A stretch of DNA of 64,000 nucleotides from Eremomyces bilateralis CBS 781.70 (lineage: Eukaryota): assembly GCA_010015585.1 (NCBI GenBank), contig ML975149.1. One strand, written 5' to 3'. Shown piece by piece: positions 36,197-60,765 of this stretch (within the stretch, counting starts at the first letter, position 1; each line of letters opens with the position of its first letter). The position numbers and the translations under genes were made by a program. The notes beneath the pieces are model-generated. The model ran no database searches. It saw nothing but the letters and a program-made list of their open reading frames with translations, and was not told the DNA's origin.

Positions 36197-37906
36197 ATGG
36201 TGAAAGTACAGCCTTTGCTGGTTTGGTGCGCCCTAGCGATCGGTTCTTCTGCCGAGATCCAATCGGTATCGACCCCTCCAGAGGCTGTGGAATCCGAAGC
36301 TCAGAAGGTGCTACAACAGGATGGAGCCGCGCCTTGTGCTCATGCTGTACGTTCATGGAACTCCATATCATGCTTCGATTATTGCTAACATCAAATTAAG
36401 TGTTCAAGCTTGACCCTTGACCTTCCTCAAAAGGTCTTTTTGGGCCATGACGGAGGCTTTGCTATGTGGGATGCGAAGCAACATGAACTCGTACCCGCAT
36501 GTCGGGTCGTACCAACCTCGGCCGAAGACATCGTCGCAATCATCGAGGCTGCGAAGAGCAATCAATGTCACTTTGCCATCAAGAGTGGTGGGCACAGCCG
36601 CATGGCCGGTGCAAGTAATGCGGAGGGTGGCATCACTATTGATTTAGAAAAGCTGACCAGCATCGAGCTTGCTAAAGATCAGAAGAGCGTGACCATTGGC
36701 GCGGGAGCTCGATGGGGTGAGATATATACGACTCTTGAAAAAGAATCGCTCACTGTCATCGGAGGACGGGTGGCAGATGTTGGAATTGGCGGCCTGGTTC
36801 TTGGAGGTGAGAAATTGTCAAATCATCACCTGAATGGTTTCTAATCAGCTTCAGGTGGGATATCGTTCTTCTCCGGCGTCCATGGCCTGGCTTGCGACAA
36901 TGTCATCTCTTATGAGATCGTGCTTCCGACAGGCAAGATTGTCAAAGTTAGCGAAAACGAAAATTCCGACCTGTTTTGGGCGCTTCGAGGCGGCGGATCG
37001 TCAAACTTCGGCGTTGTGACATCTTTTGTCCTAGAGACCAAGGAGCTACTAAATCCGAATGGCTTATGGTACTCAAACCGCATGCACACTCCTGACAAGC
37101 TACCCGACCTCACCGCCGCTCGTCATCAGTGGATGGAAGGCCTTGGGGAGGATCAAAGGGTTGGAGGCTACGACGTGTACGCCTACAGTGGCATGCACGG
37201 CATGAGCCTCATGGCTTCGCAGCACATTCATCTTGATCACGCTGATCCGACAACGTCTCCGCCGCTATTCAACGCCTATGATCCGATCGAAGCTTTGCAA
37301 GAGGTTGATATCACGCGAGTGATGCCAATGTCCAACATCACAAAGGAGGTTTCCGACATGAGCCCTTACAACATGCGCTACTCGTACTCCACTTTCACGC
37401 GGAAGCCAGACATGGCGCTCGACGAAAAGATCATGGGTTATTTGGACGAGGTGGCCGAGGAAATCAAGCATATCCCTGGGGTCGTGGCCACGTTTATCAT
37501 GCAGGCGCTTTCCAAGGATGCTCTATCGCACACAAAAAGGCGCGGAGGCAACAGTTTGGGGCTTCGGGAATCAGATGGCCCGCTTGCAATCAACAGCATT
37601 TCTTGGATGTGGGCCAGCGCCGAATTCGACGAGCTCATGCAATCACAGGTGCAGTCATTCGTCAGGAAGAGCGAGCAAGCGGCCAAAGACGCCGGCCTCT
37701 GGCATCCTTTCAAGTACATCAACTACGCCGAGAAGTGGCAAGAGGCCGATGTCCTAGCAGGGTTTGGCGAGACGAATCTCAAGAAGCTGCGGGGGATTCA
37801 GAGGAAGTACGACCCGGAGGGTGTGTTTACGAAAGGTGGACTCTGTGGAGGCTATTTCATGTTCAATGAGAAATTGGGCAGGCAGGAAGTCAGGGATGAG
37901 TTGTAG
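36197..37906 (+). CDS. FAD-linked oxidoreductase (FAD_binding_4, berberine-bridge/VAO-like) with signal peptide (exons 36197-36346, 36401-36806, 36855-37906)
   Basis: [67 protein letters not shown]; ends in RDEL. Confidence 0.92.
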
Positions 37907-38595
37907 ATGTGATATATGGCGAGCAATTACGGTTCATCAATGGGGCCTCTTGAGTAGAGGTGGATGGATGGATGGATTGGTTAGCATTATGACTGGAAAC
38001 CTTAGAGATCAGGGGACGCAATTTGGATATGAGAAAATGACGGAGCCAATTGGGCATTGATGAAAGTACTGGAAAGATCTTATGGTTGGACTGACGGTGT
38101 CGATCAATTTCATGGACATAGCTGTTTGTGGGCATTGATGCTCCCTGCTCAAAACGCAGTCTAATACAAGCCCCGGTCCTCTTTCACACAATGTGCAGCT
38201 TCTCGACAGAAGAATCATAGCTCCTCCGTCCCCCTTAGTCCTGCATCAGACGCCCTCTTCCAGTCCAGCCCTTCCGACTGCGCTGTCTTTTGATCCTTCG
38301 AATTCGCTGCTCTAATGACATCGTCTTGTGGCTTGGATAGTGCAGACCGTCCATCAATATATAATGCGAGGCAACTATATTCGAAGCTACGAAGGCAGAG
38401 ATCCAGAGTCTCCTTCATCACACAGGTTCCGATTGGGTATCTTCTCCACTGGTGAGGCCAACCAAACGATTTCTGCTAGCGGATCGAGTTCTGGAAGGAC
38501 GGGATCCTAGTGGATATCGCTCTTGACCATTAAGAACCACTTAGTCGTTCGGGTAGTAGCACGGGTCCATGTCTAGTCGATGCATACCGGTCGAC

Positions 38596-39352
38596 CTAAT
38601 ATCTCTTCGCAGGCAACTCTGCCGCATATGGAGAATTATACGTGGTTATAGGAAGTTCGGCCGTCTGTGCATGAAATCTAGGCTGCGCCTTCTTTTGCAT
38701 ATCCGTGCCAGCAGGGATCGTTGGTTGCATCTTCTTTGCTCGTCGTGCACTGAGACGTCCAAAGACGAACGCAGAGAGGACGATAGTGGCGAGGAATATT
38801 ACCCCAAGGCCCACACCTACTCCGATACCGACTTTCTGTTCCGTTGTGAGGCCGCCTTTCGTTTGGGCTAGCTGGTTGGCTCCAGTGGTAGCGGTAGACA
38901 GGCTCATAGAATTTTCGTCAATACCGGTTCGGGTAGTGTGGTGTGTACTGGTTGAGACTGCGGAGGTGGTCAGGTTAGTGCCTGGTTAAATTTGCAGTGC
39001 GGTTCGAGCTGACGAAGTTGCAGTAGAGTAGGGACAGGAGGAAGGGCCGGGGTTATATTTTCTCACTTCTTGTTAATCTGGATGGGATAATTGGTATCCC
39101 ACTCCCTACGAGGTTCGTTGGCACATTTGTCGGCAATCCGGAAAGCAGCTCGGAGATGAGTCCGGCTCCAAGGTCGGTTGGGGCAGGATTCGACAGCGTT
39201 CCTGTACTCAATATACCTCCAACAAGGGCGAGCACGGAGGACTCGAGGCTTGATATATCCGCCTCTATGGCCCTAGGATGCCATTAGCCAAAGCTGGATT
39301 TCATATTGATCGTTAGGCCATACCCAAGAGTCGGTGTTGCAGCCAGGGCCAT
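38596..39352 (-). CDS. Small single-pass membrane protein with S/T-rich stalk (Mid2-like TM motif), 3 probable exons
   Basis: LTTEQKVGIGVGVGLGVIFLATIVLSAFVF followed by basic residues and AELP repeats. Introns near 39273-39323 and 38960-39066 keep the frame. Confidence 0.55.
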
Positions 39353-40403
39353 ACTGACAATGTATATTTGCTCCGCTCTGAAGTGACGAAGGGGCAAAAG
39401 CACACTTTGCCAAGCTGGGATTGTGGGACAGTTATAAGTACATACATAGCTCGTGGCTTCACGAAATATCGTCCGAATCCGGAGTCTGGATTCAATGTGG
39501 CGTTCATCACGATGCAGCACTATGCATGAAAATATTGACGCCACATGGCATCTATTGGTCGTCCTGATACGTAAGGCTGTGGATTTTGCTCAGATCTGTC
39601 AATCGTCACACGCTGTTCACAATTATTGGCCTAGACTGCTTTAAAACGCCAAAATAGGGTCTTGAGTCAGCGAACAAGTACATAGACGTAGCTGAGAGAT
39701 GTTGGAACAGATGCTGTTGGGCTCATGTGCAGTTCTTGATCATTCGGCATCGCAGCACCAATGGCTTGCGCCCAAGGGTGCCATTTCGTAGGGGAGACCC
39801 GTACGGAATAATCCCCGTGCATAGTAGACTTGAACCAGCAGTACGGAACGAAAGACTTTGAGGAAGCACAGGACGTTGGGGGACCCATTAGCCAGTGCTT
39901 AAAAAAACCGTTACTTCACTGATCATATTCAGTGGTGAAGTAGGCCTCACAAGTCAGTACTTGATGACAATAGAATGGGTGGATCAGAAGCCAGGTGGCT
40001 GGAGGGTTAGGATCACCTCGTTCTACGACGACCACGGTCAGATGTAGTCATCGAATCTGACCTGGAGCCTCGTTGAAGCGACTCGGCGTTGTCGCCAACT
40101 GACGTCCACGACAGGCATACTAATGCCCTAGTGATGCTCCCCCATCGAAATTGAGGCCAAAATCCGCCTTATTATGTAGTAAAGTTAATGCCGAAAAGAA
40201 AATTGATGAGCAAAATGCGAACAAGGGCGCAATGCTTACTGATGTGGGCGTGGCCGCGTGGACACCACTAGACACGATGGGAAAAAGATGAAGCTCCCAA
40301 GGAGCCCCTTGTCCCATGGTTCATAGGATCAGATCGGCTCAGGGTAATCGGAGAAGGGGCTTGGAGCGATCCACAGAAGGAAAAGAAGATATATGCCTTC
40401 GAT

Positions 40404-40417
40404 AAAAAACGCAAAAA
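40404..40417 (-). terminator. RNA polymerase III terminator (T5 and T6 runs)
   Basis: TTTTTGCGTTTTTT begins 6 nt downstream of the tRNA discriminator on the minus strand. Confidence 0.75.
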
Positions 40418-40422
40418 TATAA

Positions 40423-40558
40423 TGCCTCAACACGGAGTTGAACCGTGGACCTCCGCATGTCTAGTCGTACTAGTGCTGTTATGATTGTTAGAGGGTGATT
40501 TGATTGGCTAATGAGTTGTGTGACATACCGACGCTCTAGCCAACTGAGCTATTAAGGC
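40423..40558 (-). tRNA. tRNA-Thr(AGT) with two introns (53 nt at 29/30: 40476-40528; 9 nt at 37/38: 40459-40467)
   Basis: Removing both introns gives a 74-nt cloverleaf GCCTTAA TA GCTC AGTTGGCTA GAGC G TCGCA CTAGTAA TGCGG AGGTC CACGG TTCAACT CCGTG TTGAGGC A with all four stems paired. Anticodon at 40471-40469. Confidence 0.9.
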
Positions 40559-41337
40559 TGCTAGTTGATATGAGGGAATTCAACTTCTGAATATTTAATC
40601 CTATTTTAAAACTCAATTCTAGCGTCGTACATGATCAGGACTCACGGCATTATTTTCAGGTTCTATCCACCCTCCCAGTTCATATCCGGTACGGTAATGG
40701 TGCCTTCAATTCTTCCTTCTTAGTCTTGTGTGCTTGGCAGTGTATGGAGCATGTTAAGCTGGCTGTTGACCCGCAATTTCATTGGTCAATTCCATAATAT
40801 CCGTCCTTGACTAGAACCTTCACTAGAGCTATAGCCGTTCAATACCAACAGCTACCTATTCGCACGCTATGTTAATTATGCCGATATTAAGAGGCACGTT
40901 ACAGTATTGTCTTTCTGGAAGTCCGATATGTTGTCGTTTCCGTTGATTGTTGAATTCCCTTTCATCCGCAAATCGATCACCAGAACTCGATGGCGACTTC
41001 TGGGCATCCTATCGTATTCCTTTCCTTTTGACTCGCACGATACGAACTCCGGGAGTCGTTTCATGATTAACCGGTCCTATTCAGGAGCACCAGTGCTCTC
41101 GAATCTCAATGTTAGGTCCTATTTCGGAGCTTTCAGCTCCTGCAAGTGGAGTTCGATGCCGTAGATGCGGAGAACCTTGCCTAGGTACCTTAAGTTCTAA
41201 ATGATTGACATAAATTGACAGATAAAGAGGGGTGAGGCCAGCCGAAATCTCAAATCATAACGTCCCAAGTCCAGCAAGTTTCGCATTTCCAAGTCACCAT
41301 TTCCTTCATATCCACAAGTTTTGAGAGTAGCATATCA

Positions 41338-42174
41338 ATGTCTTCTTCCGCTGCACCTCTCACCCCCGGCGTCGCCTTCATCACCGGCGGCGCTCGCGGC
41401 CTCGGCCACGCCACCGCCCTCGCCTTCGCCCAACACGGCGCCCGCGCCATCGTCCTCGCCGACATCCACGACGACGCCACTATGACCGCCGCCGCACAAG
41501 CCGTCACCTCCCTCGGCGCGGCCTGCCTCCCCCTCCGCTGCGACGTCAGCCAAGAAAGCGAGGTGGCGGCCGCGATCGCCACGACGGTCGCAACGTATGG
41601 ACGCATCGACTACGCGGCGAACTTCGCGGCGATAATGGGGCCTGTCGATGGGATTGGAGGGTTGAAGTTGGAGCATTGGGAGCGGGTCATGCGGGTGAAT
41701 TCGACGGGGCTGATGCTGTGCGTGAAGCATGAGTTGGCGCAACTGATGAAGCAGGTGGAGGCGGAACAAGTGGAGGGGAAGGTGCCCGGGCGGCAGGTGG
41801 GGAGTATTGTGAATTGCGGGTCGATTAATTCAATTCTTGGGGGGGCGAGGGCGGGGACGTATACGGTGGCGAAGCATGCGGTGTTAGGGATCACGAGGGT
41901 CGCGGCGGGAGAGGGGCGGAAACATGGGATCCGGGTCAATGCGATTGGGCCCGGGGTGGTGCATACGCAGTTCAGTGAGACGGCGATCATTGGGGGGGAG
42001 CAAGTAGCGGGACCGACGAACCAGGGATTAACTAAGTTGCTCGAGAAGCAGGGGAGGGAGATTTTACCGGAGGAGATTGGGGAAGCGACGGTGCTTTTGT
42101 CGAGCAGTGCAATGAGTGCGGTGAATGGGCATTTGTTGCCGTTGGATGCGGGCTTGACATCGCAAGCGGCTTGA
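41338..42174 (+). CDS. Classical short-chain dehydrogenase/reductase
   Basis: TGGARGLG, GRIDYAANFA, catalytic YTVAK, GIRVNAIGPG. Confidence 0.93.
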   Translation: MSSSAAPLTPGVAFITGGARGLGHATALAFAQHGARAIVLADIHDDATMTAAAQAVTSLGAACLPLRCDVSQESEVAAAIATTVATYGRIDYAANFAAIMGPVDGIGGLKLEHWERVMRVNSTGLMLCVKHELAQLMKQVEAEQVEGKVPGRQVGSIVNCGSINSILGGARAGTYTVAKHAVLGITRVAAGEGRKHGIRVNAIGPGVVHTQFSETAIIGGEQVAGPTNQGLTKLLEKQGREILPEEIGEATVLLSSSAMSAVNGHLLPLDAGLTSQAA

Positions 42175-42476
42175 GGGGTATGGATTGCAATACCCGTTAT
42201 ATATCCAAGTTTCCTCGTAGCCCATCGAGTCTATCAAACAATGTACATCTGGAACGGCGAGTCGTTTCGTGCATCCCTTCATTCAATCCCATGGAATAGT
42301 GCGAAAGCTCCATATCAATGCGCCTCTAACACCGTAAAGGAGAGGATAGAAACGGATATCATGAAAGCATACTGTGCTAGACAAGAAGAACCCTCTGATC
42401 AAGATTGTCGATGCCCTGAAGAGAGAAAGACAGAAGAAGCGCTCCAATACTCGAGTAGGTCGACTGTGAAGGAGAC

Positions 42477-45400
42477 TTATAGGATACTCATCATCCCTTT
42501 AAATCCGGCTGACTTGGCACTCGCACTGGTTGTTTTGTCCTTGTCCTTGTCCTTGTCCTTACCCTTCTTGCCCACATTTTGCGCACCGCCTAGTTGCAAG
42601 TCAGAGTCGATCCTAATGGCGCTAGAAAGCGAATCACTCACCTCTGCCGTATATCCTCGCCTTACTGCCCGTCGTCACCTTCGGCTTCTCCCCTCCATCG
42701 CCTCCACTCTTCTTACTCCCACCGCTCTCAACGCTGATCGCGCTATTGCCGCTCGCCAAAACTCCCGACTCGTTCTCCCGACCCATCCCACCTCTCTCCC
42801 GTATCGGCGAACCCATCCCGCCTGAAAACATAAATGCTCCTTCTCCAGGATACATCGGGATATGCGATCGATCGGGACTGGCCATACTTCCTCGGTACTC
42901 CGAACCAGGCCGAACCCTTTCTTTTCCAAGGCCCTCCAACCTGCTCGACCGAATTGAATCCACGCCATCATTGCCCAACCGGGTTCTCCCCTCCTCGTAC
43001 GCCGCATCGGGCGTGTTGAACGCATGATGCCTGCTCCCCCTTGGCGCAGCCGGCGCATATGTGCGGTTCGGCATCGCACGTGTCGATGAGGTGCTATACG
43101 CCGTACCCACGCCGCTTACCACCCGGCTCACCCCCTGGCCACCCCCATGCATAGGCGGCAGCGCGGCCGTCATGTTTGCCATGACCGGTGAATAATGCCC
43201 AGGGCTCACCGACGGCTCCTCCGCGTCGCCAAAATGGAACTCCGCGAACGCGGGGCTCTTCCCGAGACCGACGGGAGAATACCCAGCCTCAAGCTCTTGG
43301 TTCCGCAGTTCCAGATCCACGCACCGGTCGTGCAGCTTCCGGTACGCTTTCTGCAACTGCGCCATGTTCGCCTGCTTCGCCGCCAGCGCGCTTTCCACGA
43401 TCTGTTGCACCGCGCCTTGCCCCGCGCCGTGCGCGTTGACGTGCAGGCTCGCGTTCTGCGTTTCGGCGAGCCGCATTTCGAGGTCCGCGACAGCCCGTTC
43501 GGCGGCGTTGCGGATCTGCTCGATTTCGCGGTCGCGGGCGAGGGCGCGGCGGGCGGCGGATTCGAGCTCGCCGCGGAGGAAGTCACGCTCGGAGCGCATG
43601 CGCTCGAAGTCGAGCTCACGGTCTTCATAGGAGGAGACGCGCTCGCGGAGCTTCTCGAGCTCTTGCTCGAGAGTGTGGAGTTGGTCGACTTCGGATTGCA
43701 GGGCGCGGACAGACTCGTTGGCGAGCGTGCTGCGCGCCTCGGATTCTTCGAGGCGGTTCCGGAGATGGTCGCACTCGCCCTGGGCTTGTTGGCAAGTGAC
43801 GCGGAGGTCCTCAAGGGCGGCGGCATCGCGGCGGTCTTCGTCGCGTTTGGCACGCACGAGGCGGACTTTGCCTTCAACTTCTTTATCCCAGGCACGGGAT
43901 CCTTCGCGACGGAGGGCGACTTCTTTGCGGAGTTGCTCGTAGCGCTCTTCTTGGCGTTTGAGGCGGGATTGCAGCGTGCGGTTGGTCGATAATAACTTCT
44001 GGGTATCGGCAGCGGCGGATTCTTGAGTTAGGTCGCGGCGTTTGGCGGCACCGAGGAACGTGGCGGTTTCGGATTTGAGGTATTGTTGAAAGTGAAGCTC
44101 GTTCCGGAGGCGAAGGTTTTCGAGTTGTAGAGAGGCGATGGGGTCGGTGGATGAGGGCGGAATTTGGGTGCTGCAGGAGAAGAGTGGTGGAGGAAGGGGT
44201 TCGGTTGCGGATGCGGGTTCGCCGGGTGTGGTGGTACCGGAGCGTGGAGCACGGCGGCCGCGTTTCCGCATGGTTTCGGCGCTCGGTTTCTTCTGGATAG
44301 GAACGCTGCCGTGGGGTGGAATAGTTGGTGAATCAAGGAGAGGATGTCGTGGACGCATTTCTGTCGAAGGAGAGGCATTCTCTGAGTTGCGATGGGAATC
44401 GGGTAGAGAGGATCCGCTGGCCGAATGAGACAGTTTTCGATCCGGTGGAGCGGTTAGGGTGGTGCTGCGGGTGTTCCGGCGAGATTCGGTCCATGAGTCG
44501 CCCGCGAATGTGGTTGAATCATCATCGTACGGCGGCTCTTGAAAGTCTGCTGGTCGAGGAGCGTTCCTGGGTAGTTCAGGTAAAGGGGATGCAGGAGGCG
44601 GTTTCAGATGGTGTAGAATCGGCCCGGAGTTGTATAGGTCTAGGCACTGAGTCACCAGCTCCGCTGGGTCAGATTTGATAAACCGAGTGTCTGACAATTC
44701 ATCTTCAGGGACGGATGAATAGAACGCCTTGTGCAGAATATGGGACCGACGGTAGGTTTCCGTTCTCGACGCAACAATGCTTTGGCGGAAGTCGATCTCC
44801 TGCGCGCCAGGGAAGTTGATATTCTTGAAGTAACGACGAGGTTTGCGGAGGTAGGACGTGAAGTTTAGCGGGAAAAGTCCATATAGGAAGGTGAAGAAGT
44901 AATCCACCTTGGGGATGATTGTCTCGTCGTTGTCATATGCCAGCGTTAATTTCTCCCATGATGGATCAGCCACGAATTCGAATTGCTCATGGATAGGCGA
45001 CTCATGCATGCCTAAATCATGGTCATCCTGACTTCGGCTCCGTATTTGTTCGGGATTGAGGTCCCAGCAGACGATTCTGTTGAAGATAAGGAAGAGACGT
45101 GGGAGGTAGGAAACGAGAGAGCTCGTGATGTGAGGGATGAACATGATGAGCACAGTTAGTGCTAGGTCGACGATCGTACCCGATGTGTCAACCAGCAAAC
45201 ATGTGAGTAGGTGATCGACGAGGGACGTCTCAAGGACCAGATACAGATGGGGAGGTTGGACATGTACGAAGGCACTGAGCAGACCAAGTGCTTGCGCACG
45301 ATGCTCGTTCTTGATGAACAAGTCGTCAACGGCTAGGAGTAGTTCCTGCAAACTTGTTAGTATCGAGTCCGGTAGACTCCAAGGGACGACAAACCTTCGG

Positions 45401-46055
45401 CCTCTTCCTCCCGAATGCAAGCAAGACCTTCTCCAACTCATGCGCCTTAAGTTCGTCCCCGGGGTTCTGCATCTCCATGGAATTTCTGCTTTGCACATTT
45501 GACCGCGCCATGTACGCATCTAACAGCCACGCCGTGAAATCACGACTTAATCTAGCGTGTTGTCCATCTTCATCCGAGTCTTCGTCGTACACCAACACAC
45601 TCAGCATGAACTCCCGCGCGTTGTCAATCGTTGTGCGCTTGTGTCCGATTGAGCCGATGGTGGGGCGGATGACCTTGTTCCACCACTCGTAGAGTTGAGA
45701 ATCGGACGGGGTATAGGCGGGGCGAAGAGTGCGGATAAGCGAGATAAAGGCCGCATGTTTGTCAGGGTTCGGTTGGACGTATTTCTGGAAAACGGTGTGT
45801 AACTCCTCCGCCAGCCGCTGGGAGTCGGCCGGCTCGATAGAGTCATTTGCGTCAAGAAAGGCGTTGATAGTCTCTTGGAGTTCGTCGGGAAGTGGGGGGA
45901 AGATCGAAGGGGACGAGAAACAGGCGTCCAAGGTACGGACAACATCTTTTAAGGTTCTAACCAAGTCTGTTAGCTGAGGTTGTACCGGTGTTGCGACAAT
46001 AGTTGGCTTGCGCATTTCAAACCATTGTTTGCGATTTGACGTACCCAAAAGCCAT
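42477..46055 (-). CDS. TSC1: Hamartin / TSC1 homologue (exons 46055-46045, 45956-45395, 45345-42642, 42589-42477)
   Basis: FVHVQPPHLYLV, LIMFIPHI, FTFLYGLFPLNF and a long C-terminal coiled coil (LRNELHFQQYLK). Introns join MAFG|TLKD, RPK|ELLL and YGR|GGAQNVG in frame. Confidence 0.88.
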
Positions 46056-59466: not shown

Positions 59467-60765
59467 AGTAGCCCCCCTGCGCATTGGTGAGATCATGTTA
59501 ACACTTCTCTTATAGAGCTTGATAATATCGTTTATCGTTAGGCACATCGGCCGGATCAACTTCTGTGAAAAACCTGGGAAAGGAAACTAAGACTAGTTGT
59601 TATGATTGTTATCAGTGCATGCATCAAGGATTGATGCTACTGTAGTTAAGGCTTCAGGTTAGTGCCCGAGACACCCACAGTCATCTGTGCTTCCCTACGA
59701 CCTGCGTAATAACATAGCCTATAACATCAATCTTCCTTCATTTTCAAACAGTTCTTGCGAAACCATAACAAATCCGGTGTCTGATCATAGACGAAAAATC
59801 TATAATCCGCCTTCGTCAGCTTTCTTATATTAATCATCATTGCCGCGAGATCTTTCCTGATCTAGAGATGCCTTTTGGTGGTCTTAGTATCCTCCTCTGT
59901 GACGATTTTCTTTCAGCTTCTGCCAGTCCTCGTAGTTGCGCTTTACAACCAAAAGAATCTTAAGTTGGATAAGATGCAGGGGCAAAATACACACTACGGA
60001 TTCAATCTAACCCTCAAGCTTGACGAAGCCCTTCGGTAGCAGGGTAACGATGTCGAGTCTATTCGGTTCGTCAGGCTCTTGATCACGGCCGGATAAGCTC
60101 TGCAACACGTGGTGATTGGACACTCCTTAGTACACGAACCCAGGCTACTCTTCCGCATGAGGAGGTAGAATCATTCCGGGGCGCCCTTCGTATCTTTGGT
60201 AATAAGGCACTAGTCGCTAGGTTCAATTGCCTTCGTTTACGCGATCTCGGTTCTCCTGTTAACGTCTGTCAGGCAAATTATGGAGGAAAGAAGGCAGAGA
60301 ATGTTCCTTCTGGTGAAGCAGGAGACCTCCATCGTAAGATTCCTAATATCATCAACTTCAGATCTTCCAATCTCAACAGTATACGAGGACAGTGCTCCAG
60401 GTGGTCACTTTGTGGCAGTAGAGATACAAAAAAGCCAATCTCAGTCTCTGAGAAGCTTTTCGGGGTCTGAAGAGTTTGGAAGATGCTGTGGTAGGAATAG
60501 CATTAACACAGCCGTTATCAGGTTTGTTCGCAAGGATTGAGCCCCTATTAGATAATGGTCACAATCATTCATGTTGTATCCCCATGGCCTCAGCTGGTAG
60601 CTATGCTCCAGAAATTAGAACGGTCAACCTATTATGAAGACGTAGACAGGCCGTAGACCCTTTAAGTTAATTAGTTAACGTCAGCAAGACCCAGTTGGTT
60701 AGTTGTTCACCTTCCTTCTCCTCATCATTCCCTACGGTTTTCGTTGTTGAGAAATAGATTTCATT

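Follow-up and report, generated by a model that had tools for sequence, protein, structure and literature searches.

The work of splicing is conventionally divided between two machineries, the spliceosome acting on polymerase II transcripts and a protein endonuclease with a ligase acting on tRNAs. tRNA genes with more than one intron, some at non-canonical positions, occur in archaea, in the red alga Cyanidioschyzon and in nucleomorphs, where every intron forms a bulge-helix-bulge and is cut by the same endonuclease, and tRNAs or tRNA-like RNAs are also known to arise from polymerase II transcripts, as in the case of mascRNA from MALAT1 and of tRNA-Sec of Trypanosoma brucei. For the eukaryotic endonuclease the tRNA body serves as a molecular ruler, and a pair between position 32 and the intron is required, the typical human pre-tRNA being drawn as a bulge-helix-loop in a review of this enzyme (PMC10485636). 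Spliceosomal introns are described in U6 of Schizosaccharomyces pombe and, from Rhodotorula, in U2, U5 and U1, and certain rRNA genes carry them as well (PMC5855946). Filamentous fungi possess stwintrons, nested introns both of U2 type, whose consecutive splicing is given as obligatory (PMC5639578, PMC9024468). Here we describe a locus in a 64,000-nt stretch of the genome of Eremomyces bilateralis CBS 781.70 (contig ML975149.1 of assembly GCA_010015585.1; hereafter the window), in which a threonine tRNA gene is split by a 9-nt tRNA intron and by an mRNA-type intron of 53 nt that lies 8 nt upstream of it (Table 1). The reading preferred here, to which a probability of roughly 0.6 is assigned, is that the locus is a functional tRNA-Thr(AGU) gene whose product depends on two unrelated splicing systems acting in a set order.

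The tRNA family of Rfam (RF00005) matches the gene from end to end (40558-40423) with 41.5 bits (gathering score 29) and a 73-nt insert in the anticodon arm, and this is the sole Rfam tRNA match in the window at either threshold. ARAGORN with default settings reports no tRNA gene in the whole window, because the 53-nt intron must first be taken out: after its removal in silico by coordinates, the program returns a tRNA-Thr(agt) with a 9-nt intron directly 3' of A37, and after removal of both introns a 74-nt tRNA-Thr(agt). All 21 stem pairs of the resulting cloverleaf are standard, and direct reading finds the invariant U8, A14, G18-G19, U33 and A37 as well as the G53-T-T-C56 box. Also found by direct reading are an A box (TAGCTCAGTTGG) and a B box (GGTTCAACTCC), which, together with the T-run terminator downstream and the absence of any run of three or more T inside the 136-nt precursor, give the locus, as far as its sequence can be read, the features of a polymerase III tRNA gene.

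The evidence for the mRNA-type intron is supplied by contigs of sequencing runs, compared over positions 36500-46000 (9.5 kb). Runs X1 and X2, which may be the source of the window itself, were used solely as a DNA control (6 records), and run X4 matched with two short pieces only. Run X3 is recorded only as guessed RNA; it is treated as RNA because six segments of 48-109 nt, each bounded by GT..AG on one strand or the other, are missing from its contigs, where none of the six DNA records of X1 and X2 shows a skip. Contig 7 of X3 joins 40529 to 40475 and thereby skips exactly 53 nt (CT..AC on the plus strand, GT..AG on the minus strand), a joint that is present in this one RNA contig and in 0 of 6 DNA records. 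Letters 1-99 of the contig lie upstream of the joint and letter 100 is 40475; since letter 99 is followed across the joint by letter 100, nothing lies between 40529 and 40475. The 99 letters on the joint's shorter side correspond to the 30 nt of exon 1 and a leader of 69 nt. In addition, the depth arithmetic for X3 (264/317 x 1117.9 = 931.0) reproduces the table value exactly, and therefore no X3 contig covers the 53 nt. The 53-nt intron is excised in RNA exactly at its GT..AG ends. The joined form was not found as a paralogue in any of the six X1 and X2 DNA records, in which short paralogue matches had possibly been filtered out.

The size of the cut bears on a different model of the gene. 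Applied to the unspliced sequence in its intron mode, ARAGORN proposes a tRNA-Ser(aga) with a single non-canonical intron of 61 nt inside the anticodon loop, which would be removed in one piece. In such a tRNA the anticodon stem would contain a G.G mismatch, position 37 would be a pyrimidine, the intron would sit at a non-canonical place in the loop, and the long variable arm of serine tRNAs would be missing. The model has next to no credibility, and it is contradicted by the RNA contig, in which the cut is 53 nt at GT..AG and not 61 nt. The outcome named as contrary evidence in the preliminary description of this locus, removal of the whole region as one piece to give another anticodon, is thus not what the X3 RNA presents.

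The 53-nt intron begins with the 5' site GTATGT (40528-40523), has the branch sequence CTAAC (40491-40487), whose branch A precedes the last G by 12 nt, and terminates in CAG (40478-40476). It therefore possesses the ends, the 5' hexamer, the branch 10-20 nt before the YAG and the size of a U2-type GT-AG intron, and its size and signals agree with the consensus from the five neighbouring introns that are likewise supported by RNA, which measure 48-109 nt, start with GTGAGA, GTATGG, GTGAGT or GTTTGT and contain CTAAC, CTAAT or CTGAC. Sizes and signals of this kind would fit a filamentous ascomycete. A bulge-helix-bulge was tried for the same intron and rejected, the central helix of the two arrangements having 1 and 2 of 4 pairs when the 29/30 register is taken, and 0 and 1 of 4 pairs when the register is 28/29. 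A blastn-short search of the window for a second copy of the intron, as in a repeat family or an introner-like element, found none. As a separate observation, a 14-nt exact copy of its 3' part, from the branch region to near the 3' end, is located at 59611-59598 on the minus strand (E = 0.008), and the stretch around 59598-59611 also resembles an intron end (…CTGATAACAATCATAACAACTAG).

Taken alone, the 9-nt intron is ordinary. The preliminary description had placed it directly after A37, had noted in it an ACTAG complementary to the anticodon loop and had counted a middle exon of only 8 nt between the introns, all of which is borne out: CGACTAGAC (40467-40459) follows A37 (40468) in the anticodon loop C-T-A-G-T-A, its ACTAG (40465-40461) is the reverse complement of CTAGT at positions 32-36 (40473-40469), and the exon CACTAGTA (40475-40468) separates it from the 53-nt intron. 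Its designation as canonical is likewise upheld by ARAGORN and by the register test, every sequence and structure feature of a 37/38 tRNA intron being present. Intron bases C4-T5-A6-G7 pair with G35-A34-T33-C32 in a central helix of 4 bp, in which intron positions -6 to -3 from the 3' splice site stand in register opposite positions 35-32 (4/4, or 5/5 with U36), and the pair between position 32 and the intron is made by C32 and intron G7. The 3' cut site is held in a 3-nt bulge of A8, C9 and A38, seen in all folds as well as in the register test, and the 5' cut site lies two bases past the helix, inside the closing loop. The register test gives 4/4 for the central helix, 3/3 for the outer (anticodon-stem) helix and 0/3 for the inner helix, that is, a bulge-helix-loop form, because an intron of 9 nt is too short to hold an inner helix; nine bases are about the minimum intron size for this layout. 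By enumeration, the in-register helix would arise in a random intron with P = 0.016 for 4 bp and P = 0.008 for 5 bp, and the pairing of the 9-nt intron with the anticodon loop exceeds chance. Since CTAG is palindromic, the complementarity of intron and loop is also a direct repeat of ACTAG, which occurs twice, nine bases apart, in the middle exon and the 9-nt intron (40459-40475, minus strand). The repeat is a possible hint of the birth of the small intron by local duplication.

For the working gene preferred here, a sequence of three steps can be proposed. In the nucleus, the spliceosome, to which the splice signals point and whose presumed excision product is seen, would remove the 53-nt GT-AG intron between positions 29 and 30, in the 5' strand of the anticodon stem. 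As long as this intron is present, the tRNA body would be strongly disfavoured, with its stem carrying a 53-nt bulge and the D arm taken up by pairing with the intron; after its removal, the RNA would be free to adopt the normal fold of an intron-containing pre-tRNA, in which the 9-nt intron pairs with C32-G35 over 4 bp. The ends would then presumably be trimmed by RNase P and RNase Z and the pre-tRNA exported, and in the last step the tRNA splicing endonuclease would cut out the 9 nt and tRNA ligase would join the halves. In agreement with this scheme, the X3 contig piece 39323-40475 aligns with 0 gaps and 0 differing letters, so that the 9 nt are retained in the X3 RNA. The intermediate that had been predicted, with the 53 nt out and the 9 nt kept, is accordingly the form that is assembled at the locus in the only RNA run, X3.

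In silico folding suggests why the order might be fixed. A precursor that still contains the 53-nt intron must spend 16.6 kcal/mol over its minimum-energy fold to be forced into the cloverleaf, compared with 3.4 kcal/mol for the form lacking it, the latter being equal to the cost for the mature tRNA. In the minimum-energy fold of the precursor, TTAGCCAAT within the intron pairs with the D-arm segment GTTGGCTAG (40544-40536) in a helix of 9 bp (7 Watson-Crick and 2 G-U), for which the chance of a 7-nt match is, by a rough estimate, about 1 in 5; that this helix might lock the tRNA body until splicing is a lead only. The cellular compartments would act in the same direction, as the tRNA splicing endonuclease of budding and fission yeast is placed on the cytoplasmic face of mitochondria, outside the nucleus (PMC10275265). 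Folding and a cytoplasmic endonuclease would thus both favour the spliceosome acting first, and the order would be set twice. The earlier assertion that the GT-AG intron must be removed first is consequently kept in part: the folding energies and the location of the endonuclease in yeasts favour it, and its "must" is to be softened, the argument being one of energetics and compartments rather than a demonstration.

It could be supposed instead that both introns are real and a tRNA is made with no fixed order, the endonuclease cutting out the 9 nt first or independently and the spliceosome working earlier or later than it, and this is improbable. In its favour, the minimum-energy fold of the unspliced precursor already contains a local hairpin with a bulge, which speaks against a strict order: GCA pairs with UGC and CUAGU with ACUAG around a 3-nt bulge, and the last G of the 53-nt intron takes the place of G29. 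Furthermore, eukaryotic endonucleases reportedly cut isolated bulge-helix-bulge substrates without a tRNA body, according to work in Xenopus. The motif at this locus is, however, a bulge-helix-loop; with its inner helix at 0/3 it is not a full bulge-helix-bulge, and therefore body-independent cutting should not apply. The 16.6 kcal/mol that separate the cloverleaf from the minimum while the 53 nt are present also stand against such a route, as does the nuclear position of the spliceosome relative to the cytoplasmic endonuclease of yeasts, given which a 9-nt-first pathway would need the misfolded RNA to be exported and then re-imported. In addition, the only RNA form assembled is without the 53 nt and with the 9 nt.

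Several observations weigh against a working gene with ordered splicing and are considered together here. The X3 contigs contain neither an RNA from which the 9 nt are gone nor a mature tRNA of the locus; none lacks the 9 nt, none keeps the 53 nt and none is fully spliced, in an assembly that drops rare and short forms. Since contigs cannot show rare or very short RNAs, the missing forms without the 9 nt amount to silence and not to contradiction. X3 derives from another sample than the DNA runs, which leaves a narrow opening for a strain without the 53 nt in its DNA. Such a deletion would be unlikely: identity to the window reaches at least 99% in 9 of the 11 X3 records, they are listed with no differing letter, and the skipping of five ordinary introns follows the same pattern. 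The location of the endonuclease is carried over to this fungus from yeasts. Furthermore, the spliced RNA is continuous in the X3 contig with the 69-nt leader upstream, and on the other side it does not stop at the T5/T6 terminator but extends over 1 kb farther, into the next gene, whose ATG at 39352 lies 1.07 kb downstream of the tRNA. Past the 198-amino acid (aa) gene that begins there, the contig merges with a convergent plus-strand gene, and a k-mer contig that spans two genes is no proof of one molecule.

Pre-tRNAs made by polymerase III normally carry only a short leader and stop at the T-run. With a leader of at least 69 nt and read-through of the T-runs, the observed RNA has instead the look of a polymerase II transcript, and the tRNA precursor may be made, at least partly, by polymerase II; on polymerase III transcripts the X3 RNA contig is silent. 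The RNA may also belong to an mRNA leader or to a read-through RNA that never yields tRNA, and if it is polymerase II read-through lying off the maturation path, the X3 RNA would carry no information on the order of splicing. The main uncertainty is whether the X3 intermediate belongs to the tRNA pathway or to an mRNA leader.

Carried to its end, this thought would make the locus a tRNA relic, a tRNA-Thr gene that landed in, or was overrun by, a polymerase II unit, either the leader of the 198-aa gene or a non-coding RNA, in which an ordinary leader intron is spliced, the 9 nt are never removed and no tRNA results, the perfect cloverleaf being merely the mark of a young insertion. Although judged rather unlikely, such a relic would account for the sole RNA seen, a contig that begins at least 69 nt ahead of the tRNA, crosses the T-runs and continues past the ATG at 39352, for the lack of RNA without the 9 nt in the X3 contigs and for the lack of conservation evidence, no orthologous locus having been found in metagenome scans (an outcome that counts against the preferred reading as well). 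Against the relic stands the fact that the RNA without the 53 nt has everything expected of a pre-tRNA, its A and B boxes being intact, every invariant base being in place and a terminator being present along with a 9-nt intron ready for the endonuclease, and that the 136-nt stretch contains no run of three T, which fits passage of polymerase III. RNase P and RNase Z excise such tRNA shapes from long RNAs, for example the tRNA-like end of MALAT1, and a tRNA is therefore to be expected whichever polymerase is at work.

A working gene would also be compatible with a version in which all of these activities are arranged in series, from a polymerase II host transcript through the spliceosome to a carved pre-tRNA, its export and the removal of the 9 nt at the mitochondrial surface. 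This version is offered tentatively, and is more doubtful than the working gene as such. The RNA would start at least 69 nt upstream and ignore the T-run terminator, and the intron in the anticodon stem would be spliced co-transcriptionally; until then, the folding lock (the pairing of TTAGCCAAT with the D arm and the split stem) would hide the tRNA from the end-trimming enzymes RNase P and RNase Z as well as from export and from the endonuclease. If this were true, the making of one tRNA would call on polymerase II, then on the spliceosome and then on the tRNA endonuclease, and its excision would also decapitate the leader of the downstream mRNA.

Comparison with environmental sequences adds further points on the opposing side. 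A metagenome scan with a strict anticodon-arm pattern gave 0 matches, and a looser scan gave at least 117 loci, mostly unrelated or bacterial. Among the 117 matches listed, ARAGORN finds Thr(agt) with introns of 7-14 nt in at least 19 loci, and L009 and L093 have a 9-nt intron of the same layout; from these sequences, short 37/38 introns appear to be common in environmental eukaryote tRNA-Thr(AGT) genes. A GT-AG insert in the 5' half is found in 0 of the 117 loci listed. For the register test, in which the register was assumed, a strict cloverleaf filter kept 19 loci with 17 distinct introns and dropped 98 loci. Of these 17 introns, again among the matches listed, 7 have the pair of position 32 with the intron and 1 has four or more pairs, and therefore the neat helix found here is not the rule in that sample. 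The mean pairing run of the 17 is 0.76, compared with 0.31 in 1000 shuffles, a weak difference in view of the largest shuffle mean of 1.24. In three of the loci (L026, L051 and L066), within the stretch from about 110 nt ahead of the pattern match through its end, the D arm is separated from CTAGTA by an additional insert of about 27 nt, and 12 nt more follow CTAGTA; they lack GT-AG, lie on AT-rich contigs and receive inconsistent anticodons from ARAGORN, and they possibly represent another kind of doubly interrupted tRNA.

Table 1. Coordinates of the tRNA-Thr(AGU) locus, its parts and the adjoining transcribed features within the window.
Feature	Coordinates	Strand	Length	Description and support
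tRNA-Thr(AGU) gene	40423..40558	minus	136 nt with both introns, 74 nt mature	Rfam, ARAGORN
Leader	40559..40627	minus	69 nt	5' of the tRNA; X3 contig 7 runs from it across the spliced junction
Exon 1	40529..40558	minus	30 nt	positions 1-29: 5' acceptor strand, D arm including A box, initial 3 nt of anticodon stem
mRNA-type intron	40476..40528	minus	53 nt	between positions 29 and 30; RNA joint, splice signals
TTAGCCAAT in 53-nt intron	40503..40511	minus		pairs with D-arm GTTGGCTAG (40544-40536) in minimum-energy precursor fold
Middle exon CACTAGTA	40468..40475	minus	8 nt	positions 30-37: last 2 stem nt, C32, U33, anticodon AGT, A37
Canonical tRNA intron CGACTAGAC	40459..40467	minus	9 nt	between positions 37 and 38; ARAGORN, bulge-helix-loop test
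Exon 3	40423..40458	minus	36 nt	positions 38-73: 3' strand of anticodon stem, variable loop, T arm including B box GGTTCAACTCC, 3' acceptor strand and discriminator A
T5 and T6 runs TTTTTGCGTTTTTT	40404..40417	minus		from 6 nt 3' of tRNA end; polymerase III terminator-like, direct reading
Downstream gene, 198-aa ORF	38596..39352	minus		open reading frame (ORF) with membrane-span-like stretch; RNA-supported introns 39323-39273 and 39066-38958; same X3 contig as tRNA

The surroundings of the tRNA are largely covered by RNA contigs. A short-chain dehydrogenase gene (Pfam) lies divergently at 41338-42174 on the plus strand, with a space of 700 nt to the tRNA that is covered by an RNA contig, and between this gene and the 198-aa gene the X3 contigs cover nearly all of 40646-41361 and 39323-40422. 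The 1.07 kb between the tRNA and the ATG at 39352 contain several short upstream ORFs of 63-73 aa, and the long RNA upstream of the 198-aa gene is either an unusually long mRNA leader or a separate non-coding RNA. The last exon of that gene has no Pfam family. Farther away, a 961-aa ORF (42634-45519, minus strand) contains a hamartin (TSC1) domain (Pfam E = 2.3e-10) and has RNA-supported introns at 42641-42590 and 45394-45346; since these lie at both of its ends, the true protein extends beyond the ORF on both sides, and the nearest Atlas clusters of this hamartin-like protein are mostly from Ascomycota. The Aspergillus C/D-box snoRNA family Afu_199 has a weak match at 59813-59889 on the minus strand, below threshold (24.7 bits versus a gathering score of 45, E = 3.4).

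An RNA-verified mRNA-type intron that splits the recognition helix of the endonuclease, 8 nt from a tRNA intron, is not ordinary. In the literature, no paper reporting that a tRNA gene contains a spliceosomal intron was found, subscription journals being largely outside the search, and the accessible text of the Kuraishia genome paper contains nothing on such introns (PMC3879985). If the preferred reading is correct, the spliceosome can act on a tRNA precursor, and splicing of the mRNA type would gate the folding of a tRNA and hence its end-processing, its export and its second splicing. The preliminary description had suggested that the supply of tRNA-Thr from this locus could be coupled to spliceosome activity; such coupling would depend on the number of other tRNA-Thr(AGU) genes. 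The RNA evidence also raises the question of which polymerase makes the precursor. Genes of this construction would escape standard tRNA finders, and as ARAGORN finds none in the window, fungal tRNA gene counts may be too low. The locus is, in addition, a natural substrate for learning what the eukaryotic endonuclease needs of the anticodon stem.

Compared with mascRNA and the tRNA-Sec of T. brucei, the locus is similar in that a tRNA shape is embedded in an RNA extending far to both sides, with the difference that release products are not seen here. With the archaeal, Cyanidioschyzon and nucleomorph genes it shares the possession of more than one intron per tRNA gene, one of them in the anticodon stem; unlike their introns, the 53-nt intron fails as a bulge-helix-bulge and has spliceosomal signals with a matching excision in RNA. 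The 9-nt intron resembles the canonical 37/38 introns, which are cut by SEN/TSEN and joined in fungi by Trl1, in its position, its pair between position 32 and the intron, its 3-nt bulge, its 4-bp helix and its 5' loop (PMC10485636), whereas the anticodon stem, a recognition element of the endonuclease, is broken here 8 nt upstream by an intron of another kind. The likeness to the spliceosomal introns of snRNA and rRNA genes consists in GT-AG ends and a branch site within a structured non-coding RNA gene of a kind transcribed by polymerase III, and in the need for the mRNA machinery before folding. Those genes, however, encode parts of the spliceosome or rRNA, and their introns are usually explained by reverse splicing at the active site, a proximity that a tRNA does not have; moreover, a second intron of the endonuclease type adjoins here. 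As in stwintrons, one intron interrupts a signal needed for the removal of the other and would thereby force an order. The locus is not itself a stwintron, as no internal U2 intron lies within the splice signal of an external U2 intron: the two introns stand side by side with an 8-nt exon between them, they would be removed by two unrelated machineries, the second has no GT-AG, and the signal that is interrupted is an RNA helix.

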